A stretch of DNA of 27,252 bases from an uncultured virus (IMG/VR IMGVR_UViG_3300031455_000002). Taxonomy: Duplodnaviria > Heunggongvirae > Uroviricota > Caudoviricetes. Where the stretch lies: the IMG/VR virus record IMGVR_UViG_3300031455_000002; one strand, written 5' to 3'. The notes under the pieces are model-generated. The model was not told where the DNA came from, searched no databases, and saw nothing but the letters and a program-made list of their open reading frames with translations. The translations under genes were made by a program, and so were the position numbers. Positions 2,872 to 25,397 of this stretch are shown here, piece after piece (position 1 is the stretch's first letter; each line of letters begins with the position of its first letter).

Positions 2872-3924
2872 CTACTTGACCAGCTCCGCTACGGATTCCG
2901 CCTCGACGATCGCATCTACCCGTCCGCCAAGGGAAAACGTCCGAGAGGCGGCTCCCGTCTCCGGGTTCACCAGCGGTACCCGGAAGGTTTTTTCGATCGC
3001 GATGACCCCCTTCGGTGAGCCCCACCTGGCCGCATACCCAAGGAGCATCGCCTTCTCCTTCTCTCGGATGTATGGGTCCTCCGTCTCGAGCGCCGCTATC
3101 GCAGCCGATAGATCACCTGTGCGCCGGAACACATCGAGCGCAGCGTGGATACTGTGCCCCGTGGTGAGCGTCTCCGGTTTCTTTATCGGTCGCATCCTGA
3201 TCACGTAGCGGTTGTAGAACTTGCGAGGACACGAACGGTAAGCACGCATCGCGCTCTGCGTGAGCAGGCTCGCGTCGTCCGTCAGCGTCGTCGCTACGCC
3301 GTCTTCGGCGAGCTCCTCATGGACGTCTTCCTCGAAGCGGAAGAAGAGAGGATCGTTGAGATCCATCGTGTTCGAACACGGACCGAGATAGTCGCACTCT
3401 CGTCCCCAGCTCACACACGAGTCTGGATTACGCGGGTACATATTCAGCCGTCGCGCATCCCGCATCAGAGATGCCGTGTTCCACATGTCCTGCGCCGCTT
3501 CGCGCTCGTCGGACTCGAGTCGTACGACCACGCCACGGGCGTAGTATTTCGCAGGGTTCTCCGCGATGGCCTCGAGGCACCTGTTGCCGTACTCCTCTGG
3601 GGTCTCCGGTCTGGACTGGAGAACGTATCCGGCATCGGTGTCGCCGGTCTGGCGCCACTTTTTGCCGTGAAGACCAAGGACGCGCTGGCCGGCGGCGTCG
3701 AGGACGATCTTCTGGTTGTTCTCGTCGAGGAGAGGGACGGTGCTGGGTTTCTGCGCCGGTTTCAACAAACAGTCATAGACGCAGCCGCGCGGGTCGTGGC
3801 CCATCTTGCGAACGGCAGGGAGATAGAGCGAGAGCTGGGGGTCAAGGATCGTCCGTTTCCAGAACGTCGAGCCTGGAGAGAGATCCTCGCTCGTTGTCTT
3901 CGTCTCCCACAGATAGCACTTCAC
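2872..3924 (-). CDS. PD-(D/E)XK Cas4/AddB-like Fe-S exonuclease, circularly permuted
   Basis: Probable start GTG 3924 overlaps the upstream stop (GTGA). Motifs WETKTT, QLSLY, C-x6-C-x5-C, then TQSAMRAYRSCPRKF, GHSIH, IEKTF, GGRVD. Confidence 0.8.
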   Translation of the reverse strand: MKCYLWETKTTSEDLSPGSTFWKRTILDPQLSLYLPAVRKMGHDPRGCVYDCLLKPAQKPSTVPLLDENNQKIVLDAAGQRVLGLHGKKWRQTGDTDAGYVLQSRPETPEEYGNRCLEAIAENPAKYYARGVVVRLESDEREAAQDMWNTASLMRDARRLNMYPRNPDSCVSWGRECDYLGPCSNTMDLNDPLFFRFEEDVHEELAEDGVATTLTDDASLLTQSAMRAYRSCPRKFYNRYVIRMRPIKKPETLTTGHSIHAALDVFRRTGDLSAAIAALETEDPYIREKEKAMLLGYAARWGSPKGVIAIEKTFRVPLVNPETGAASRTFSLGGRVDAIVEAESVAELVK

Positions 3925-4589
3925 TTTGCCACCCTCACCTTGAACGGCAACTTCTCCGCATCCTCGAGTGACATCTTCCTCCACCAGACCTTCTCGTCCT
4001 TGTTCCATCTGAAACCGTGCTCTTTGACCACGTCCTTCATCTCGTACGGCGCGAGCGAATGAACCATCGCCTTCGGCCGCATCGCGTGAAGCAGGACAGG
4101 CTCGAGCTCATGCCCCAGCTCGACGAACCGGGTCAGGATGCGCGAGAGCGTGTCGACATCCGTCATCGCTCGGTGCGCGCCCGACACCCCTAGCCCGAAC
4201 GAAAGTGCCAGGTGCACGAGAGAGCCCCCTCGAGCACGACCGGGCCACGCTACGTCGTTCTCGGTGCACACCCAAGGTCGTCCGAGATCGGGCGTGAACT
4301 GTTGATCGAACTCTGCGTGGTGTGCCAGGATGATCTGAGCCGGCTCGAGGAGCCACCGCACCGTTCCCCAGACATGCTCGGGATCTCGGGCTTCCGGCAA
4401 GAGCTCTGCCGGGATCCCGTTGACGTGCTCCGCTGCGTTCTCGGCGGGGCCTCGGATGAGACTGGCGAAGCTCGCAACGGATCGAGCGCGTTGAACGTCG
4501 AAGAGAGATACCGCCACCTCGATCGCCCGGTCCCGGATCGGATCCAAGCCCGTCGTTTCCGTGTCTATCAAGGCGACGAAACGAAGCAT
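3921..4589 (-). CDS. DnaQ-like (DEDDh) 3'-5' exonuclease
   Basis: ATG 4589 with AGGAG SD; LIDTETTGLD (Exo I), AHHAEFD (Exo II), AHRAMTDV (Exo III); C-terminal VKEHGFRWN motif. Confidence 0.9.
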   Translation of the reverse strand: MLRFVALIDTETTGLDPIRDRAIEVAVSLFDVQRARSVASFASLIRGPAENAAEHVNGIPAELLPEARDPEHVWGTVRWLLEPAQIILAHHAEFDQQFTPDLGRPWVCTENDVAWPGRARGGSLVHLALSFGLGVSGAHRAMTDVDTLSRILTRFVELGHELEPVLLHAMRPKAMVHSLAPYEMKDVVKEHGFRWNKDEKVWWRKMSLEDAEKLPFKVRVAK

Positions 4590-5569
4590 GTTTCTCCTGC
4601 GCGTCGTCGAATGTCTTCCAGCGCCCGCTCGTTGCTCGCGAAAAAATGCGCGGTGCGCCCCGTGGACGCCATGTAGATCATGTGTCCGGCCAGCGCGGGG
4701 CCGTGCCGCTCTTCGAGGGCGTACCCCGCTTCCCCGGCCAGGTGGATCGACCACCCGGCGCGGCAGTGCGTCGTCGTGCACGAGTGCCACGCGCCCATGT
4801 TGAGCGCCCCCTTGCCGGAATCGATGACCTCCAGGATCCGGCGATCGAGATCCGGAACGACGGGCACGTCCTGGTGTTTCGCGCGGTACCGCTCGGCACG
4901 CTGGGCGTAGCGCGCCGGATCGACGACGCGCGTGTAGGGCTCCGGCGGATCGACCTTCTCGACGCCGGCAGGCACGTTTTTGGCGTCCGCGAGGTAGGCG
5001 TCCGCGAGGTTGGCGTCCGCGAGGTCGGCGCCCGCGAGGTCGGCGCCCGCGAGGTCGGCGCCCGCGAGGTTGGCGCCCGCGAGGTTGGCGCCCGCGAGGT
5101 TGGCGTCCGCGAGGTCGGCGCCCGCGAGGTCGGCGCCCGCGAGGTCGGCGCCCGCGAGGTCGGCGCGCGCGAGGTTGGCGTACGCGAGGTTGGCGTACGC
5201 GAGGTTGGCGCCCGCGAGGTTGGCGTCCGCGAGGTTGGCGTCCGCGAGGTCGGCGCCCGCGAGGTCGGCGCCCGCGAGGTCGGCGCGCGCGAGGTTGGCG
5301 TACGCGAGGTTGGCGTACGCGAGGTTGGCGTCCGCGAGGTCGGCGCCCGCGAGGTCGGCGCGCGCGAGGTTGGCGTACGCGAGGCTGGCGTACGCGAGGT
5401 CGGCGCGCGCGAGGTTGGCGTACGCGAGGCTGGCGTACGCGAGGTTGGCGTCCGCGAGGTCGGCGCCCGCGAGGTCGGCGCCCGCGAGGTCGGCGCCCGC
5501 GCCGGACGGATCTCCGCGGCGCCACAGCTTGTGCTTTTCGAGAATCTCGTTGAGTTTGGCCTGATCCAT
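4568..5569 (-). CDS. Pentapeptide repeat protein with C-terminal His/Cys domain
   Basis: About 34 A(D/N/S)LA(G/Y/D/R) repeats followed by MGAWHSCTTTHCRAGW. Confidence 0.9.
   Translation of the reverse strand: MDQAKLNEILEKHKLWRRGDPSGAGADLAGADLAGADLADANLAYASLAYANLARADLAYASLAYANLARADLAGADLADANLAYANLAYANLARADLAGADLAGADLADANLADANLAGANLAYANLAYANLARADLAGADLAGADLAGADLADANLAGANLAGANLAGADLAGADLAGADLADANLADAYLADAKNVPAGVEKVDPPEPYTRVVDPARYAQRAERYRAKHQDVPVVPDLDRRILEVIDSGKGALNMGAWHSCTTTHCRAGWSIHLAGEAGYALEERHGPALAGHMIYMASTGRTAHFFASNERALEDIRRRAGETCFVSSP
4985..5494. repeat. 15-bp tandem repeat (about 34 units) encoding the pentapeptides
   Basis: Unit of the form gcccgcgaggtcggc with variants, directly visible. 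Confidence 0.95.
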
Positions 5570-5578
5570 GGTTCGCGA

Positions 5579-5630
5579 AGCCTAAACGGGACACTTGCAT
5601 CTGTCAACGACATTCGCTACGCTACGTAGC
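5579..5630. promoter_or_regulatory. Overlapping divergent sigma70-type promoters with a possible operator
   Basis: Minus: TTGACA(5607-5602)-17-TAGGCT(5584-5579). Plus: TTGCAT(5595-5600)-17-TACGCT(5618-5623). Palindrome GCTACGTAGC at 5621-5630. Confidence 0.65.
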
Positions 5631-6138: not shown

Positions 6139-6596
6139 AAATCTACGTCGCCTCCTCTTGGAGAAACGCCCTGCAACCCACCATCGTCCGCGCGCTCCGT
6201 CAATGCGGCCACGAAGTCTACGACTTCCGGCACCCAAAGCCGGGCGATGACGGTTTCACCTGGAAGCAGGTCGGCGCTGGAACAGCTTTCGTCAACAAGG
6301 TCGAACCGGCGACGTGGAGGAAGATGCTCGAGCACCCACGCGCCGCCGAAGCCTACGAAGCAGATATCTCGCACGTGAGGTGGTGCGAGGCCGTCGTCTA
6401 CGTACTCCCGTGCGGGCGCTCTGCGTCGTTCGAGTTCGGCTACGCGATGGGCCAAGGCAAGCGCGGCGGCTCGGTTTCTGCGTGGGTTGTTCGAAGATGG
6501 ATCGGTCAACATTCGATCAGACGGAAAACTAGACCATGTCGAGTTCTCGTCAATCGTCCCCGAGGTACGCAGAATTGTGCGAACGATGCTGCTTAG
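6135..6596 (+). CDS. Nucleoside 2-deoxyribosyltransferase-like protein, C-terminus probably replaced after ~6465
   Basis: KIYVASSWRN, GHEVYDF, VLPCGRSASFEFGYAMGQGK; the tail reads out of frame through the intein remnant. Confidence 0.7.
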   Translation: MKIYVASSWRNALQPTIVRALRQCGHEVYDFRHPKPGDDGFTWKQVGAGTAFVNKVEPATWRKMLEHPRAAEAYEADISHVRWCEAVVYVLPCGRSASFEFGYAMGQGKRGGSVSAWVVRRWIGQHSIRRKTRPCRVLVNRPRGTQNCANDAA

Positions 6597-7089
6597 ATTC
6601 GGAATCGTTTCTGGAATCACCAACAGAGACGAGACGATCTACATCTACGGTCAATACGCCAAAATCTTTGGTGATCGGATCGGGTTCGTGTCGAAGTTCA
6701 AACAGGACAGGCTCAAGGAATCGGAGGCATCAGAAGGAACTCGATACACGTTTCCACTACGCAAAACGGAACTAAATTTATCGGCAGCTAAGCGCGGAGA
6801 AATCCAGCGACATCTAGCGCCAAAAGAAGCGTTCGTTGACAGAGCCCCGTTTCACCACTCGAAGATTAAGTCAGTTTCGAGATACATCGGCGAATCTGTA
6901 TGCGTGGAGGTTCCAGACGGTCATCAGTTCTTGCAGAACGGGTTCTGCGGTTGGAACAGTCAGGGTTCACAGTTCAAACATGCGGTCGTCATGGTGGATT
7001 GGAAACAGGACTACTCGAACGAAAATACGAGACGGCTGGCGTATACCGCCGCGACCAGAGCGTCAGAGAAGCTCACGGTGTTGACGTGA
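6463..7089 (+). pseudogene. 3' remnant of a RecD/Dda-like helicase gene: C-terminal half of a LAGLIDADG intein plus C-extein
   Basis: ARFLRGLFEDGSV (block E), VRRIVRTMLLRFGI (block H), VCVEVPDGHQFLQNGFCGWN|S (blocks F/G, junction 6957/6958), then SQGSQF...RRLAYTAATRASEKL (SF1B motifs V/VI); in-frame TGA at 6376 upstream. Confidence 0.75.
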
Positions 7090-9944
7090 AGGACACCGTC
7101 ACTCTTCCCCTCTTCCCCACCTCCACCCTCTTCGAAGCCAAGATCCCAAAGCTCCGCCCCTATCAGGAGCGCGGGATCCAGAGGCTTCGAGACCGCGTTC
7201 GCGAAGGGAAGAAGCGCATCCTTCTGGTGGCCCCCACAGGCGCCGGTAAGACCACGGTGATCGCTGCGATCATCCGTACCTCATCCGTGCCCGTACTATT
7301 TGTGGCACACCGTATGGAGCTCATTGATCAATGCGTGAAGGAACTGGCTGCCGTAGGAATAACTAATGTAGGCGTCATACGTGGCAACGATAATCGAGTA
7401 AACCCGAACGCTTCGATCCAAATCGCTTCAATTCAAACTCTCTCTCGACGCGATAAACCGGAAGCGGGCATAGTGTTCGTCGATGAATGTTTCCCCGCTG
7501 GCACTCTAGTCAGCGGGCGTCCGATCGAGGCGATTCGAATTGGAGACTTGGTAGATAGCTTCGATCCGAAAACAGGATTCAGGTGCGTACGTCCGGTTGT
7601 TCGTGTTTTCAGAAAAGAACCCTCATCGCTTGTCCGTCTCACAATAAATGGAGAAACGCTTGTCTGTACCCCAAATCATCGGATCTGGACCAGTAACGGA
7701 TGGGTTGAAGCAAAAGACTCACTCGGGCAAAATGTCGCCGTCCTACCGATCGACTTGCGATTCTTGCAACAAAGAGACCAGGAAGAAACCTCGACACTGG
7801 AGCATCCGGATGCTCTGCGATCCGTGTCTACAGAAGTCAAAAAAAGACAGAGCAAAAAAAGTTCACGCGATCTGCAAACTATGCTTGAAGCCGATTGTCC
7901 TTCAAGGAAAGAGCTTATGGCGCGCGCGATCCGGAGCATTTTACTGCGGAGATCATCCGAAGAACTGTCGACCTGTAATCACAATACGATCGACGTGCGA
8001 CACCTGTGGGAAAGAAACAGGAAAGCCAGCCAGACACAACAGTATTCCGTTGTTCTGCGCGAATTGCTGTCAACAGAGAAACGAGAAGAGAAGAAAATAC
8101 ATCACTCTTCCGTGTGCCATCTGCAACACTCCGGTAAAAGAGAGAACAGTGAAGATCCGTACCGGAAGAGTCTACTGTTCGGAGCAGCACAAAAAAGAAT
8201 TTCTGAGACAAATGCATTCGAAGAGACTATCGGAGTACAACCGAGTGCATGCATCAGAGAGAATGCGTCTACAAAATCCGATGCGAAATCACGGTGCGCG
8301 CTTGAAGATGGCGCACACGCTTCGCTCTATAGGACATCGTCCTCCATGGGTCGGAGGCAAAGGACGAGGGTTAACGGAACCACAACAACGAATGATCAAT
8401 GCACTTGGGCATGGATGGACCCCGGAGCTTCCGATCGTGACGAAGAGAGAAAACGATCTACCCAACTGCATTTACATCGATCTAGCAAACGAGTTTTTAA
8501 AGCTAGCGATCGAAGTGGACGGGAAATCGCATGGGCTTCTGAAAACAAAAGAAGCCGATGTCCGCAAGGAGTCATTTCTTCGTGGGTTAAAGTGGACAGT
8601 GTTGAGGTTCTCGAATCAGGAAGTGATGGAAAATTTGGAGGACTGTGTCCAGAAGGTATCGTCTACAATCTCGAGGTTGAAGGCACTCACACCTACTTTG
8701 CAAACGGAATAGCTGTATCAAATTGCCATCGCGCAGTCAGCGACAGCTACCTAGCGCTCCTCGAGCACTACAAGCAGTCCATCATCCTCGGGTTCACCGC
8801 TTCCCCCACCCGCTACGACGGTCGACCGCTCGGCAACCTGTTCGAGTGTCTGGATGTCATCGCAACGTACGAGGGGCTCATCAAGGACAAGTTCATTATT
8901 CCTCCGCTCTGCTACGGCGGTCCGGTAGAGCTCGATCTGTCGAGTATCAAAACCGTCGGCGGGGACTACGACGACGGTCCTCTCGGGGAGCTAATGCGGG
9001 ACGTGTCTCTCGTGGGTCAACTCCTCGAGCACTGGCGTCGTCTGGCGAACATGTACCCCCGCGAGAATGGTTCTGTAGGTCTCGTCGAGGGACCGCTCCG
9101 TCGCACCTTCATATTCGCCGTCGGGATCCAGCACTCGATCGACATCTGCACCAGGTTCGAAGCGGACGGAGTCCGCATCGCTCATCTCGACGGAACCACT
9201 CCCGAGACAGAGCGGAAGCGCATCATCAATGCGCTCGGATGCGGCGAGCTCGATGCGGTAACCAACGTCGGTGTGCTGCTCGAGGGGGTCGACATTCCGA
9301 GCGCCAAGTGCGTCGTGCACGCCAGGCCGACGCAGTCGATCGTTCTGTGGCGCCAGAGCGCCGGCCGCATCTTCCGCCCCTGGCACCCCGGCTGCCGGCC
9401 AAGCTGTCGCGAACACCCGAGCCTTCAACCGCTGCTTCTCGATCATGCTGGCAACATCGCGCGACACGGCTTCCCTCACGAAGATCTGCACTGGGAGCTC
9501 ACCACTCGAGCCCGCTCGCTCGAGAAGAAGGTCGCCACCCGAATCTGCCCCAAGTGCTATGCCTACCTCCCTGCTTACAAGCGCGTTTGCCCGTACTGCG
9601 ACCACGAGGCGCCTCCACCGAAGCCGGCCGAGCTACCCAAGGAGAGCGAGGAGCAACTCCGTCAGCTCTCAGGGAGCCCTGAGGAGATGCGGCGCATGTA
9701 CTTCCAGATGATGGCTCAGGTCGCGCGCGCTAAGGGCTACAAGCCTGGGTTCGTCGGAGCTCGGTACAAGAGCCGATACGGCGTGTGGCCACCGTGGGAT
9801 TGGAGTGAGTCATTGAAGTCGTCGTTCGCCAGCGATCCGGACTGGCAGTTCAACTTGCAGGCGAACCAGGAACGGAAGAGGAAGTTCGAGTTGGCGAAGA
9901 TGGCGAAGGAGCTCGCTAAGATTGAGAACCCGGACGATTGGTAA
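7086..9944 (+). CDS. SF2 DExH helicase (RadD/YejH-like phage helicase) with intein and C-terminal Zn ribbon
   Basis: GTG 7086 overlaps the upstream stop; LRPYQ, APTGAGKT, VDE|CH split by intein, GFTASP, LLEGVDIP, QSAGRIFR, CPKC...CPYC. Confidence 0.92.
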   Translation: MKDTVTLPLFPTSTLFEAKIPKLRPYQERGIQRLRDRVREGKKRILLVAPTGAGKTTVIAAIIRTSSVPVLFVAHRMELIDQCVKELAAVGITNVGVIRGNDNRVNPNASIQIASIQTLSRRDKPEAGIVFVDECFPAGTLVSGRPIEAIRIGDLVDSFDPKTGFRCVRPVVRVFRKEPSSLVRLTINGETLVCTPNHRIWTSNGWVEAKDSLGQNVAVLPIDLRFLQQRDQEETSTLEHPDALRSVSTEVKKRQSKKSSRDLQTMLEADCPSRKELMARAIRSILLRRSSEELSTCNHNTIDVRHLWERNRKASQTQQYSVVLRELLSTEKREEKKIHHSSVCHLQHSGKRENSEDPYRKSLLFGAAQKRISETNAFEETIGVQPSACIRENASTKSDAKSRCALEDGAHASLYRTSSSMGRRQRTRVNGTTTTNDQCTWAWMDPGASDRDEERKRSTQLHLHRSSKRVFKASDRSGREIAWASENKRSRCPQGVISSWVKVDSVEVLESGSDGKFGGLCPEGIVYNLEVEGTHTYFANGIAVSNCHRAVSDSYLALLEHYKQSIILGFTASPTRYDGRPLGNLFECLDVIATYEGLIKDKFIIPPLCYGGPVELDLSSIKTVGGDYDDGPLGELMRDVSLVGQLLEHWRRLANMYPRENGSVGLVEGPLRRTFIFAVGIQHSIDICTRFEADGVRIAHLDGTTPETERKRIINALGCGELDAVTNVGVLLEGVDIPSAKCVVHARPTQSIVLWRQSAGRIFRPWHPGCRPSCREHPSLQPLLLDHAGNIARHGFPHEDLHWELTTRARSLEKKVATRICPKCYAYLPAYKRVCPYCDHEAPPPKPAELPKESEEQLRQLSGSPEEMRRMYFQMMAQVARAKGYKPGFVGARYKSRYGVWPPWDWSESLKSSFASDPDWQFNLQANQERKRKFELAKMAKELAKIENPDDW
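7488..8723 (+). mobile_element. Intein (412 aa) inserted in helicase motif II (DE/CH)
   Basis: Block A CFPAGTLV, block B LVCTPNHRIW, blocks F/G VYNLEVEGTHTYFANGIAVSN followed by Cys+1; removal restores VDECHRA. Confidence 0.93.
7648..8712 (+). CDS. DUF559/Vsr-like endonuclease with CxxC repeats, nested in the +1 frame inside the intein
   Basis: IDLANEFLKLAIEVDGKSH...DVRKESFLRGLKWTVLRFSNQEV; several CxxC motifs; alternative start ATG 7732. Confidence 0.85.
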   Translation: MEKRLSVPQIIGSGPVTDGLKQKTHSGKMSPSYRSTCDSCNKETRKKPRHWSIRMLCDPCLQKSKKDRAKKVHAICKLCLKPIVLQGKSLWRARSGAFYCGDHPKNCRPVITIRSTCDTCGKETGKPARHNSIPLFCANCCQQRNEKRRKYITLPCAICNTPVKERTVKIRTGRVYCSEQHKKEFLRQMHSKRLSEYNRVHASERMRLQNPMRNHGARLKMAHTLRSIGHRPPWVGGKGRGLTEPQQRMINALGHGWTPELPIVTKRENDLPNCIYIDLANEFLKLAIEVDGKSHGLLKTKEADVRKESFLRGLKWTVLRFSNQEVMENLEDCVQKVSSTISRLKALTPTLQTE

Positions 9945-20016: not shown

Positions 20017-20430
20017 TCAGCACGGCGCCACATCTTTCGGCGCCGGCATCGTGTCGCGCTTGAGTACGTTCTGATGGATCCATTCCTCGAGCTCGATAGC
20101 AGCTTCGTCGAAATTCATCCCGGTCAGGTCGAGCACCGGGACACCGTGCTGGATCCCGTGATCCGCTTCCATCTTCATCCCGGAGGACACGACTGGCCCA
20201 ACGAGGATCGTGACGTCACACCGCTCGACCTGCGCGCAATCACACGCCAGTCCACGAGCTCGGTTCTCGGGAGTCTCCTCGAGAACCCCTGTCATGACGA
20301 TCCACGAGCAGACCGGCGAGACGCCTTGGACACAGAGCCAAGCTGCCCACTGAGCGGCCTTGCGGCGGTTCTCTTCGATGCCCTCGCGCGTGGGGGCAGA
20401 GAGCTGGTGGGCGATATAGGCGACAATCAT
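20017..20430 (-). CDS. NDT-fold protein (DUF4406/DUF1937-like)
   Basis: VAYIAHQLSAP...EENRRKA...DCAQVERCD...SSGMKME. Confidence 0.65.
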   Translation of the reverse strand: MIVAYIAHQLSAPTREGIEENRRKAAQWAAWLCVQGVSPVCSWIVMTGVLEETPENRARGLACDCAQVERCDVTILVGPVVSSGMKMEADHGIQHGVPVLDLTGMNFDEAAIELEEWIHQNVLKRDTMPAPKDVAPC

Positions 20431-23073: not shown

Positions 23074-23254
23074 GTCGAAGGAACGAAGCCCCTCCGCAGG
23101 CTCTGACAGGCTGCGGGTTTCGTGGCGACAGGTGGGGTATCGCCGCGTCGAAGGTACGAAGCCCCTCCGCAGGCTCTGACAGACCGCCGGCAAGCGCCGG
23201 GAGAGCGGCGGGCAGGACGTCGAAGGTACGAAGCCCCTCCGCAGGCTCTGACAG
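23074..23254 (-). CRISPR. Mini CRISPR array: three 36-bp repeats, two spacers (36 and 37 bp)
   Basis: Repeat CTGTCAGAGCCTGCGGAGGGGCTTCGTACCTTCGAC (minus strand) at 23219-23254, 23147-23182 and 23074-23109 (one mismatch, distal copy); unique spacers; one more base is shared, so a 37-bp repeat is possible. Confidence 0.93.
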
Positions 23255-23363
23255 AGGCCCCGAGCGCCCCCAATGATTTCGATACCTTACATGACTGTTT
23301 GCGAGCGGTCCCATTTCCGGCGCTTCTCATCTCTACTCCGCGGCCTCCGGGGAAGCCAGATCA
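23255..23363 (-). promoter_or_regulatory. CRISPR leader-like region
   Basis: 109-bp gap between effector stop and first repeat, with an AT-richer core CGCTCGCAAACAGTCATGTAAGGTATCGAAATCATT. Confidence 0.55.
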
Positions 23364-25397
23364 TCACTCGATCCGGCATCTTTTCCGCCCTTCGCGAGCG
23401 CCTCCTGTCTCCGGCGCGTCACGCATCCGCTCGCCGAAGACGTAGATGAGTGTCTCCTTGAACTCGCTCACGGCAGCCAGGGTCCGATTGCGCCGTGCTA
23501 TCTGATGTAGCTCCACCGGCTTGTCCTCGCTCTTGTCCCTCAGGGCGAGCGCAGCCAGGTCGACGGCTCCCCCAAGTGAGCACGTCTCGTACCTCTCCGA
23601 GAGACGCGCGGCGGTGACCTTGTAGAAGTCTCGGCGTGCCGCGATCGCCGCTCGAGTGGCGCCCTCGGCAACTTGCTCGAGGTGCGTGTCCTTGAGCCGC
23701 CAGGTCTCGAGCCAGCAGGCGAACCGTTGCTCTGATGACACTCCGTGTTCCGACGCCCACTGCTCGAACGTCTCGAACGACACGAACTTCTCTTTCCTGT
23801 TTTCTCTCCAGTCGTGCCACGTTTTGAGCGTAGTGTCATTCGCCAGGACGTTGCTCACACGCCTGAGCGGCTCATGTCGCTGCCAGTGTTCGATGTTCTT
23901 GCACATCTCCTGGACGTCCGATGGCATCTTGTCCAGTTGCTTGACGAGCTCGGCGCGAGCGGTGTTGAAGTGGATGTCAGCGTAGTGCCTCAAGCTCGCT
24001 GCGTAGCGAAGACGCGCAGGGATACTGTCTCGCCTCTGCTGGTGCTTCTTGACCCGGCACTGACCAGCGTGCGGAAGCAGCAACGGCTCTCCGTTGATGT
24101 CCGCAACCTCGAGTGTATCTCCACGCTGCGTCCACTTGAGAGACACGTGAACGTGTCCGGTACCGACCGCTCGCTGGATGAGCGGGCTGGTGGGCGTCGC
24201 GGTGAGCTGCACGCTGTACTCCATCTTGCCGCCCAGGCGCTCCTCGGGGACTAGGTAGATCCAGGTGATCTTGGTGTCGTCCGGGATGGGGCGATGCACC
24301 GCGACCTCTACACTGACCCACTCCGAGATCCCGTTCGACTGCGTGATCCGGATCTGCATCGTGGCGAGCCACTTGTGCTCGTTTTTGCTCTCTGGACGCA
24401 GGCGCATATCACGCACCCGGAGATCACGACACTTCCCGGACAGGATAGCTCCCCATGAGATGCCACCTTGTACCTGCCATCCCATTTTGCGCAGCCTGGG
24501 CAAGTCGCGGTCGTGCTTGCTGCGCGCGAACGCAGGACGGATCTTCGGACGACGTGGTTCTCCGTCGGGGCGAGGCTTCGGTTTTTTGCCGGCTTGAATG
24601 ACCGATTCTTTAACAGCCGTGTAGGTACCGTGGTTCAGGTTGTGAGCGCCTTTCATCCAGTTTTGAAGCCAGTACACGACAGCATCGAGGCGCGTCAGAT
24701 CCTTCCAGGCGTCGTGCCAGGGTTCTTCCAACATCTCCGCACGCACGCTTGCGTTGTACTTCTTCTTCGTGTGTGTTTTGCGTGAGTCAGCGTCGAGCTG
24801 ATCCGAATACTTCTCTAGATCAGACTTCGCTTGTTTCGCTGCGGTCTTCGTTTCTCGAGTCGCGCCTTTCTTCGTCGCTTCTTTCAGAGCGGCGTTGGTG
24901 ATTTCGCGGATACGGTTTCGTTCCTTAAGTCGCTTGACGGAGACCCCTCGTGTACGAGCCTCGTACACCAGGCTGGGTTCATCAACGAACGCCGCGAACG
25001 CTTCTCGCATCGGCTTGGCTTGCTCCCCAGCAGCTTTGCGCCACTGCTTCATGATCTCGATGTCGGTGAGCTCCTTCTCGACGTCGACCTTCTTCGTCGG
25101 TGTGGCCTTGCCTCCCTTCGTCTTCGGTGCGCTCGCCTCCTGACGCTTGCCTCGGATCTTGCCTCGAGCGCCGCTGGGTCCGGAGTGATCCCCGATCCAG
25201 TCCGAGAGTTGCTCGTACGCAGTGTCGATCTCGAAGAGACCCGGCACGTAACGAGAACGGATCTCACCGTACGCGCGGCGGCGCCAGCGCTCGATCGCAA
25301 CGAGTGCGTTGAAGAGATGTCCGGCGTCGCGCATCTCGGCGTGGGCTGCGGCGTGACCTTCGATGAACCTGCGGACTCCGAACTTGAATACCATCAT
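23364..25397 (-). CDS. cas12m: Type V CRISPR effector, Cas12m (V-U1)-like, RuvC degenerate and C-terminally truncated
   Basis: VFKFG...FNALVAIER, long coiled coil, LNHGTY, VAVHRPIPDDTKITW, RuvC-I-like HVHVSLKW, WRLKDTHL...RRDFYKVTAARLSERY, RuvC-II-like SLGGAVDL, RRNRTLAAVSEF; adjacent co-oriented array. Confidence 0.8.
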   Translation of the reverse strand: MMVFKFGVRRFIEGHAAAHAEMRDAGHLFNALVAIERWRRRAYGEIRSRYVPGLFEIDTAYEQLSDWIGDHSGPSGARGKIRGKRQEASAPKTKGGKATPTKKVDVEKELTDIEIMKQWRKAAGEQAKPMREAFAAFVDEPSLVYEARTRGVSVKRLKERNRIREITNAALKEATKKGATRETKTAAKQAKSDLEKYSDQLDADSRKTHTKKKYNASVRAEMLEEPWHDAWKDLTRLDAVVYWLQNWMKGAHNLNHGTYTAVKESVIQAGKKPKPRPDGEPRRPKIRPAFARSKHDRDLPRLRKMGWQVQGGISWGAILSGKCRDLRVRDMRLRPESKNEHKWLATMQIRITQSNGISEWVSVEVAVHRPIPDDTKITWIYLVPEERLGGKMEYSVQLTATPTSPLIQRAVGTGHVHVSLKWTQRGDTLEVADINGEPLLLPHAGQCRVKKHQQRRDSIPARLRYAASLRHYADIHFNTARAELVKQLDKMPSDVQEMCKNIEHWQRHEPLRRVSNVLANDTTLKTWHDWRENRKEKFVSFETFEQWASEHGVSSEQRFACWLETWRLKDTHLEQVAEGATRAAIAARRDFYKVTAARLSERYETCSLGGAVDLAALALRDKSEDKPVELHQIARRNRTLAAVSEFKETLIYVFGERMRDAPETGGAREGRKRCRIE

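Follow-up and report, generated by a model that had tools for sequence, protein, structure and literature searches.

A Cas12m-family protein with a shortened RuvC domain, encoded beside a two-spacer CRISPR array in an uncultured soil phage

Cas12m is the natural model of non-cutting interference by CRISPR, and is under development for base and epigenome editing. We describe here a locus from an uncultured soil phage (IMG/VR record IMGVR_UViG_3300031455_000002) in which a protein of 677 amino acids (aa), P0001, assigned below to the Cas12m family, is encoded next to a small CRISPR array. The stretch analysed, hereafter the window, is 27,252 nucleotides (nt) long, that is, 27 kb of an 89-kb contig from a soil metagenome. 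We conclude that the locus is probably a self-contained, phage-borne derivative of the type V-M systems, in which an array-guided effector would bind DNA and block transcription or replication without cutting.

Two described members of the family, MmCas12m2 (8HHL/8HHM/8HIO; Omura et al. 2023, PMC10442227) and GoCas12m (8PM4; Bigelyte et al. 2024, PMC11013384), are reported to use a single CRISPR RNA (crRNA) with a pseudoknot handle, 36-nt repeats and no trans-activating CRISPR RNA (tracrRNA), and both were described as plasmid or chromosome encoded. According to the same two reports, Cas12m processes its crRNA independently of the RuvC site, and binds DNA in a manner that depends on a protospacer-adjacent motif (PAM), silencing it without cutting. 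Both proteins keep their RuvC domain complete, with an H-D-D triad, and a TNB whose zinc finger is of the HCCC type (PMC10442227). RuvC triads of Cas12m are often non-canonical (HDD, NDD, DED and HEK are given, for four clades each defined by three residues; PMC10442227), and a 'gradual inactivation' of Cas12m across the V-M tree has already been published (PMC10691335). Type V-M has been reported as enriched on plasmids 'and also some prophages' (PMC11656645). In one phage, myxophage MV-1, MvCas12m is described as lying beside an array, without cas1, cas2, cas4 or tracrRNA and with spacers for which no target was identified; this protein of 610 aa reportedly keeps D305, E463 and D555 (10.64898/2026.09.14.751636). 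P0001, compared with it by description only, has none of the three. A further relevant group is TldR, which is TnpB-derived and, like P0001, phage-carried, with RuvC mutations and with the zinc finger and RuvC end missing from its C terminus. TldR is reported to bind DNA under the guidance of a single omega-RNA-like guide, without a CRISPR array; prophages use it to repress a host gene, and some guides measure 9-11 nt (10.1101/2023.11.30.569447).

The effector gene of the window is followed on the same strand by a leader and then by an array of three direct repeats of 36 nt and two spacers (23074-23254), with a start-to-start repeat spacing of 72-73 nt. Chance alone comes nowhere near to explaining three almost identical 36-mers at one constant period. 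On the minus strand, the repeat sequence is CTGTCAGAGCC...CCTTCGAC. The parts of the locus are as follows (positions in the window):

23364..25397, minus strand: effector gene P0001, 677 aa as called (open reading frame, ORF, call); assigned to the Cas12m family, with a RuvC that aligns as degenerate and C-terminally shortened
23255..23363, minus strand: leader, from gene to array; 109 nt as called, 78 nt counted from the ancestral stop
23219..23254, minus strand: repeat 1, leader-proximal, 36 nt
23183..23218, minus strand: spacer 1, 36 nt; no target found
23147..23182, minus strand: repeat 2, with the same 36 nt as repeat 1
23110..23146, minus strand: spacer 2, 37 nt; no target found
23074..23109, minus strand: repeat 3, leader-distal; one substitution, at plus-strand position 23082, an unpaired loop position

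An initial annotation of this DNA had described a 677-aa gene, a leader and three 36-bp repeats on one strand, with the mismatched repeat at the distal end. All these features were recovered, the variant copy being that at 23074-23109, and the leader length of 109 bp is right for the ORF as called. It had also seen no cas1, cas2 or anti-repeat in the window. In agreement with this, a family scan found no Cas1, Cas2 or Cas4 among the 103 window ORFs of at least 85 aa, and a window-wide blastn-short search with the repeat returned three copies only, with nothing above 10 nt in the opposite sense, that is, no anti-repeat. The peptide motifs that it quoted were all located in P0001 (HRPIP at 368-372, V-x-L-x-W at 418-422, RRDFY at 588-592 and R-x2-AA at 638-642), and wherever it could be checked its description was accurate. 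Rfam and tRNA scans of the window were empty, and a promoter and terminator scan of the window gave a number of sites not above that in shuffles.

P0001 had no match in Pfam, NCBIfam or PHROGs. In a phmmer search against the PDB, the sole match below E 1 was a 577-aa Cas12m, 23vw_A (6e-7), entered there as 'CRISPR-associated DNA-binding protein Cas12m'; a second row, at E 1.7, was treated as noise. A profile of its 34 metagenomic homologues (35-61% identity) matched Cas12m entries of the PDB, namely 23vw_A at 1.8e-33, UnCas12m4a (23vu_A) at 5.2e-17 and MmCas12m2 (8hhl_A) at 3.8e-11. The PADLOC Cas12u1 profile, named after the old designation of subtype V-M (former V-U1), matched P0001 at 3.1e-23, from residue 168 to 650 and over profile positions 64-472 of 533. 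A confident AF2 model built on the alignment (predicted local distance difference test, pLDDT, 83.0; predicted template modelling score, pTM, 0.71) was then compared with known structures. The top four Foldseek matches were all Cas12m entries (1.5e-14 to 3.6e-11, with 8pm4 at 1.5e-14 and 8hhl at 5.3e-14). In VIA, Cas12m structures scored Z 15.7-17.1 over 415-484 aligned residues, the MmCas12m2 and GoCas12m entries lying at Z 16.7-17.1 over 462-484 residues (8pm4_A, Z 17.1, 484 aligned; 8hhl_A, Z 16.7, 483 aligned, model 1-665 to chain 4-544). The best match outside Cas12m reached Z 12.0, Cas12f and TnpB being at or below this value. The model shows the Cas12m domain order, that is, WED, a helical REC1, WED again, and a RuvC with a helical REC2 insertion. 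Because homology and fold both point to it, membership of P0001 in the Cas12m family is supported. The Cas12m-like, type V-M identity proposed in the initial annotation, which had suggested a profile search and a structure prediction as checks, is thus upheld by the profiles, by PADLOC and by the predicted fold.

These comparisons also separate P0001 from two other kinds of non-cutting relative. Cas12k, the effector of type V-K CRISPR-associated transposons, is nuclease-inactive, only binds DNA, and partners with Tn7-like TnsB, TnsC and TniQ. The structural match of P0001 to Cas12k (Z 9.2) is much weaker than that to Cas12m, and none of the tnsB, tnsC and tniQ Pfam families was found among the 103 ORFs of the window, a search that spans 27 kb of the 89-kb contig; this argues against a V-K system. 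Unlike TldR, P0001 is accompanied by a three-repeat array, and it is nearer to Cas12m than to TnpB (Z 17 versus 11), so that it is not a TldR; by analogy, TldR would nevertheless be the closest parallel for its mode of action.

With its best sequence match, 23vw_A, P0001 shares the HR.IP motif of the WED domain, the x-L-G-W strand of RuvC-I, the helix before RuvC-II and the RNRF.AA.SEF helix. However, 23vw_A keeps an Asp (IDLGW) and a Glu (LEEF), and also DQDYNAA and a zinc finger with two CxxC pairs. In P0001 the Asp and Glu are replaced by Ser and Gly, the chain stops short of the zinc finger, and the helical REC parts are longer by about 100 residues. RuvC positions were mapped through the HMMER alignment to MmCas12m2, with residue numbers from PMC10442227 and an offset of two residues allowed for in 8hhl_A. 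His317 of MmCas12m2 (RuvC-I) corresponds to Ser419 of P0001, within HVSLKW, and Asp485 (RuvC-II) to Gly610, within SLGGAVDL. In the P0001 alignment there is no counterpart of Asp579 (RuvC-III) or of the HCCC zinc finger of the TNB (His549/Cys552/Cys569/Cys572; 549-572). The chain ends 20 residues past the helix that precedes the TNB, and its tail holds no Cys/His knuckle.

Three independent signs agree on the loss of this end. The last 61 positions of the PADLOC Cas12u1 profile are unmatched by P0001; its structural alignment to 8hhl halts at MmCas12m2 residue 544, before both the TNB and RuvC-III; and a full-length relative, P0101, can by comparison be aligned with 23vw_A throughout TCHKCG...CSTCGELWDQDYNAAKNLL. 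We also considered that the missing RuvC-III and TNB might lie on a split gene; this was rejected, no zinc-finger or RuvC motif being present in the flanking ORFs and no neighbour being conserved. In the 34 close homologues, the RuvC-I position is occupied by S, A, E, D, H or R, and the RuvC-II position is nearly always Gly. The guide side looks different: His269 and Arg270 of MmCas12m2, which contact the crRNA scaffold, correspond to His368 and Arg369, the latter invariant in 34 of 34 sequences, so that the His-Arg pair of the WED domain is in place.

Ser419, Gly610 and a chain that ends before TNB and RuvC-III would therefore exclude cutting by anatomy. It is a well-founded reading of these alignments that P0001 has lost its cutting apparatus and kept its guide-holding part. 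The term 'nuclease-dead' used initially appears apt, given the non-acidic residues aligned with RuvC-I and RuvC-II and the missing last RuvC segment; the suggestion of a 'compact' tool does not hold, the 677 aa of P0001 exceeding the 596 aa of MmCas12m2. The complete RuvC with an inserted TNB zinc finger that defines Cas12m of type V-M is absent from P0001, and we file it as a protein that descends from and would work like Cas12m, yet falls outside 'complete RuvC plus TNB'. We found no description of Cas12m relatives devoid of TNB and RuvC-III in the papers searched, although such a clade may stand unremarked in the trees of the census papers.

An HMMER scan of 1.84 billion representatives returned 2945 proteins at E <=1e-3, of which 458 were at <=1e-30. 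The best 150 and the 34 close homologues were aligned, giving a set of 180 proteins. A protein was called full when at least 50 residues, with at least one CxxC, CxxH or HxxC, followed the last shared helix, and truncated otherwise. By this tail rule 82 of the 180 are full and 98 truncated. In the full proteins, the RuvC-I residue is mostly D, N or H and the RuvC-II residue E or D, and DQDxNAA follows the zinc finger; judged by these residues, the full-length set is ordinary Cas12m. RuvC-II is Gly in 33 truncated proteins. In a FastTree phylogeny of 178 proteins (two fragments were dropped), the tail trait changes at least seven times. P0001 falls in a clade of 67 leaves, all 67 of them truncated, with a FastTree local support of 100, and the next node adds 14 full-length proteins.

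Nine related loci were available with both effector and DNA, eight of them distinct, since L003 is the L002 sequence on another contig:

Truncated type: L001, L002 (= L003), L004, L009, L010
Full-length type (zinc finger present, RuvC-I residue D): L011, L012, L013

Each of the nine related loci (9 of 9) carries an array just downstream of its effector and on the same strand; the repeats measure 36 nt and the spacers about as much. All six loci of the truncated clade for which DNA was available, window included, have kept it. The eight distinct related loci hold 4, 20, 7, 11, 7, about 10, 23 and 13 repeat copies. Repeat sequences diverge widely, and every one of them can adopt the same two interleaved helices, which in the window repeat pair A8-C11 with G20-T23, and C14-G19 with C29-G34. 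Covariation was measured on ten modal repeats, one per array, with no pairing filter. We observed that 90% of cells were paired, compared to 35-46% with slid partners; 8 of the 10 pairs change on both sides, and none of 500 shuffles reached the score. A set of 33 distinct repeats gave the same pairing outcome, its percentage of paired cells being biased upward by a stem-2 filter used for L002 and L005. The helices are positioned as in the published handles of Cas12m crRNAs, given as -28..-26 with -17..-15 and -23..-20 with -6..-3 for PmCas12m (10.64898/2026.03.26.714355), and as -22..-17 with -8..-3 for MmCas12m2 (PMC10442227). The locus thus has the same-strand array of Cas12m, with pseudoknot repeats of about 36 nt and, in the window, no anti-repeat that would betray a tracrRNA. 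Because orientation, repeat length, pseudoknot and lack of tracrRNA all fit, the transcript would be a crRNA of the Cas12m type, with a 5' repeat handle followed by the guide.

Some further observations concern the two arrays of the 179-kb phage. The trailer ends of both arrays (L002 9097-9380 and L005 4084-4230) consist of degenerate repeats with spacers of 11-16 nt, and the repeats inside the two arrays are variable, with compensating changes. The array of L005 (27.7-35.5 kb of the 179-kb IMG/VR record) is the second one of this complete genome, an orphan with about 12-14 related repeats, some 113 kb from the effector.

The genes predicted in the window make it a phage-like replication, recombination and DNA-metabolism block. 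They include a Sak4-like annealase, a ParB-like protein, a PD-(D/E)XK exonuclease, a DnaQ-like exonuclease, an intein-split helicase, several HNH endonucleases, a 921-aa PrimPol, a C5 methylase, nucleoside deoxyribosyltransferases and an XRE regulator. Relatives of the locus were found in IMG/VR records of 179 kb (direct terminal repeats, CheckV 100% complete), 55 kb (91% complete) and 91 kb (a provirus). Among four such records, two have terminase matches and none has a Cas1 match, and each carries one effector copy. That the system is phage-borne, as initially proposed, is thus backed both by the replication and recombination module of the window and by the phage genomes of its relatives. 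Besides the effector, no neighbour is conserved across the window, L001, L002 and L004; gene and array would therefore move as a self-contained module. The locus had no DNA or protein match in a phage collection, peptide patterns found no relative in GTDB species genomes (a pattern-dependent search), and tblastn with the PrimPol and Sak4 proteins of the window reached only phages with 25-36% identity, of many hosts. Among sequencing runs, the locus was listed in one DNA run from a soil metagenome, probably its source, and in no RNA run.

Full-length, zinc-finger proteins of the Cas12m type with downstream arrays are present on the viral contigs of L011, L012 and L013 (90, 125 and 321 kb), with D-E-D triads in L011 and L012 and a D-A-N-like one in L013. 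Since all three are IMG/VR viral contigs, phage-borne Cas12m appears not to be rare. A few neighbouring genes of the window deserve mention. A 1014-aa SF2 helicase with an intein (Hint and intein-splicing matches) is encoded at 6900-9944 on the plus strand, and an endonuclease-like ORF is nested in it at 7648-8712; a LAGLIDADG domain and a UvrD C-terminal piece in one ORF (6487-7089, plus strand) suggest a second interrupted helicase gene. A pentapeptide-repeat protein (4571-5569, minus strand; Pfam 2.4e-49) lies in another frame, on the same strand, of a 559-aa 'exonuclease' ORF (3921-5600, minus strand), overlapping the N-terminal, low-complexity part of the latter. The real genes at 3921-5600 are probably the pentapeptide-repeat protein followed by a shorter DnaQ-like exonuclease. 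Finally, a 137-aa nucleoside 2-deoxyribosyltransferase-like protein (DUF7768; 20020-20430, minus strand) is 66% identical to one at 2085-2495 of L004, where it stands directly upstream of the effector.

The end of the effector gene and the leader contain two further features:

23333..23384, minus strand: tail frameshift, +1, by an extra A in the A4 run 23381-23384; from a three-frame translation compared with homologue tails
23297..23312, minus strand: leader motif GGGACCGCTCGCAAAC, some 45-55 nt ahead of repeat 1; from alignment and motif scan
Leader motif sites in relatives: L001 ~7961, L002 ~8026, L004 ~4487, L009 ~7134, L010 ~7291, L012 ~6967

The called frame of P0001 ends in ...GGAREGRKRCRIE. 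The +1 frame instead ends in ...KDAGSSDDLASPEAAE, with its stop at 23333-23335, and matches the ...AAE end of the family. Counted from this ancestral stop, the leader measures 78 nt, compared to 68-86 nt in relatives. With one assembly as the source, the extra A could be either a genuine mutation or an error of assembly. An AAE C-terminus is found in 89 of the 180 family or superfamily proteins, with or without a zinc finger, and ERSG and GGAR motifs are common in the disordered tails of truncated and full-length forms alike; in the P0001 model, residues 663-677 are disordered (pLDDT <50). The leader motif GGGACCGCTCGCAAA is nearly invariant in the six loci of the truncated clade, and is also present in L012 and, more loosely, in L011. 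It is the reverse complement of the ERSG tail codons (GAG CGG TCC GGT), which are unchanged even in the AT-rich 321-kb phage L013, so that the 3' end of the gene and the leader of the array have one element in common (GCGAGCGGTCC / GGACCGCTCGC). The conservation of these codons extends to their nucleotides, which complement the leader motif, so that the tail may be conserved as RNA or DNA rather than as peptide. An RNA stem between tail codons and leader motif is part of the minimum-energy fold in 3 of 6 loci, with no covariation. Possible roles of the motif are those of a promoter, of an RNA switch, or of a leader element that serves the uptake of spacers in trans.

A search for spacer targets was conducted at several levels. 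All spacers of five arrays, compared by blastn-short to the window and the loci, gave self matches only. Exact 24-mers of both window spacers had 0 matches in IMG/VR, and a 22-mer of spacer 2 had 0 in GTDB species genomes. The window array had no match in the phage collection and only chance-level ones in plasmids (E >=0.1); the L009 array had no plasmid match. The L002 array, without a match in phages, had one borderline match in plasmids (E 7e-3), which spans a repeat-spacer junction. Against its own complete 179-kb genome it matched other repeats only, which argues that this phage does not target itself.

Taken with what is reported for Cas12m, these features suggest the following mode of action. 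The array would be transcribed from the leader, in the direction of the gene. The effector would bind the pseudoknot handles and mature the transcript into crRNAs, each with a 5' repeat-derived handle and a guide from the 5' part of the spacer; the handle would be held by the surfaces of WED and the RuvC remnant, through His368 and Arg369 of HRPIP. The complex would then bind complementary double-stranded DNA flanked by a PAM, remain there, and block transcription or replication of the target while leaving it uncut. Because no spacer target was found, the purposes are ones that we infer: the phage may exclude rival phages or plasmids, or repress host genes, without DNA damage; the initial annotation had likewise proposed host genes or competing elements. 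It is possibly temperate, given the XRE regulator in the window and a provirus among the relatives.

Several points weigh against this interpretation. Neither of the two window spacers yielded a protospacer, nor did those of the relatives' arrays searched, and no phage structural gene was found in the window. The frameshifted tail and the mere two spacers of the window copy would fit a decaying system. The split between truncated and full proteins follows from a simple tail rule and from a quick, unrooted FastTree of the 178 best matches, without curated Cas12m references, so that we infer the direction of the tail change. Lastly, the RuvC pocket of MmCas12m2 is reported to help hold the displaced DNA strand (PMC10442227), so that a shortened RuvC could weaken binding or alter the substrate. 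However, TldR, likewise truncated, still binds under RNA guidance, which argues that DNA binding can survive the loss of the zinc finger and RuvC end.

Four other explanations were weighed. In the first, the effector is an RNA-guided platform whose disordered ERSG...GGAR...AAE tail recruits a nuclease, helicase, polymerase or protease of the phage or the host. The recurrence of the AAE end and of the tail motifs is in its favour, as is the disorder of the P0001 tail, a property of many docking motifs. We nevertheless consider it unlikely: no gene besides the effector is conserved between the window, L001, L002 and L004; PmCas12m tolerated loss of its last residues in the assays reported (10.64898/2026.03.26.714355); what is conserved in the tail is perhaps RNA or DNA and not the peptide; and the window copy has lost its AAE end through the frameshift.

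Somewhat less probable again is that the window copy is a decaying remnant without current function, as the two spacers, the frameshift and the lack of an identified target might suggest. Up to the frameshift, however, all 665 residues are intact and can be aligned over their whole length with 33 homologues (41-63% identity, 60 invariant columns), and both proximal repeats are identical. Moreover, the frameshift, in a homopolymer within a disordered tail, may have arisen by error in the assembly of a single metagenome, while mini-arrays without adaptation genes are described as usual in virus-borne CRISPR (10.64898/2026.09.14.751636).

That the effector still cuts, through a rearranged active site or by attacking RNA instead of DNA, is very improbable. 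Rearrangements of the catalytic site are reported in TnpB and Cas12 (PMC10691335), and Asp613, three residues past the RuvC-II position, is common in the family; but the RuvC-I position varies freely in the 34 homologues, RuvC-II is Gly in 33 of the truncated proteins, the segment bearing RuvC-III is absent, and even Cas12m proteins whose D-E-D triad is complete bound DNA uncut in reported assays (PMC11013384). Solitary repeats and mini-arrays with an action on host systems are reported from phages (PMC11656645), but it is hardly credible that the repeats here are no array of this protein, whether as a decoy for the CRISPR system of a host or as something unrelated: effector and array occur together in 9 of 9 related loci, and a pseudoknot is preserved by compensatory changes while the repeat sequence shifts.

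Overall, we retain a guided, DNA-binding and non-cutting effector as the probable nature of the system. A broader proposal is doubtful and is offered as speculation: the Cas12m clade without TNB and RuvC-III, seen here only in phages and viral contigs, might stand halfway on a path from an adaptive effector of CRISPR to an RNA-guided regulator that is hard-wired like TldR, with drifting, compensating repeats, units with 11-16-nt spacers in the 179-kb phage, and a GCGAGCGGTCC / GGACCGCTCGC element that would couple effector expression to crRNA production, and might serve to reprogram host or rival genes without DNA damage.

A large clade that keeps the array and the handle but lacks the TNB and the third RuvC motif would show which parts of the nuclease lobe RNA-guided DNA binding can do without, and would extend the 'gradual inactivation' of type V-M to outright deletion. 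Its phage setting would also make it a case for learning what viruses do with a non-cutting CRISPR system, the candidates being exclusion of rivals, silencing of host genes and self-regulation.

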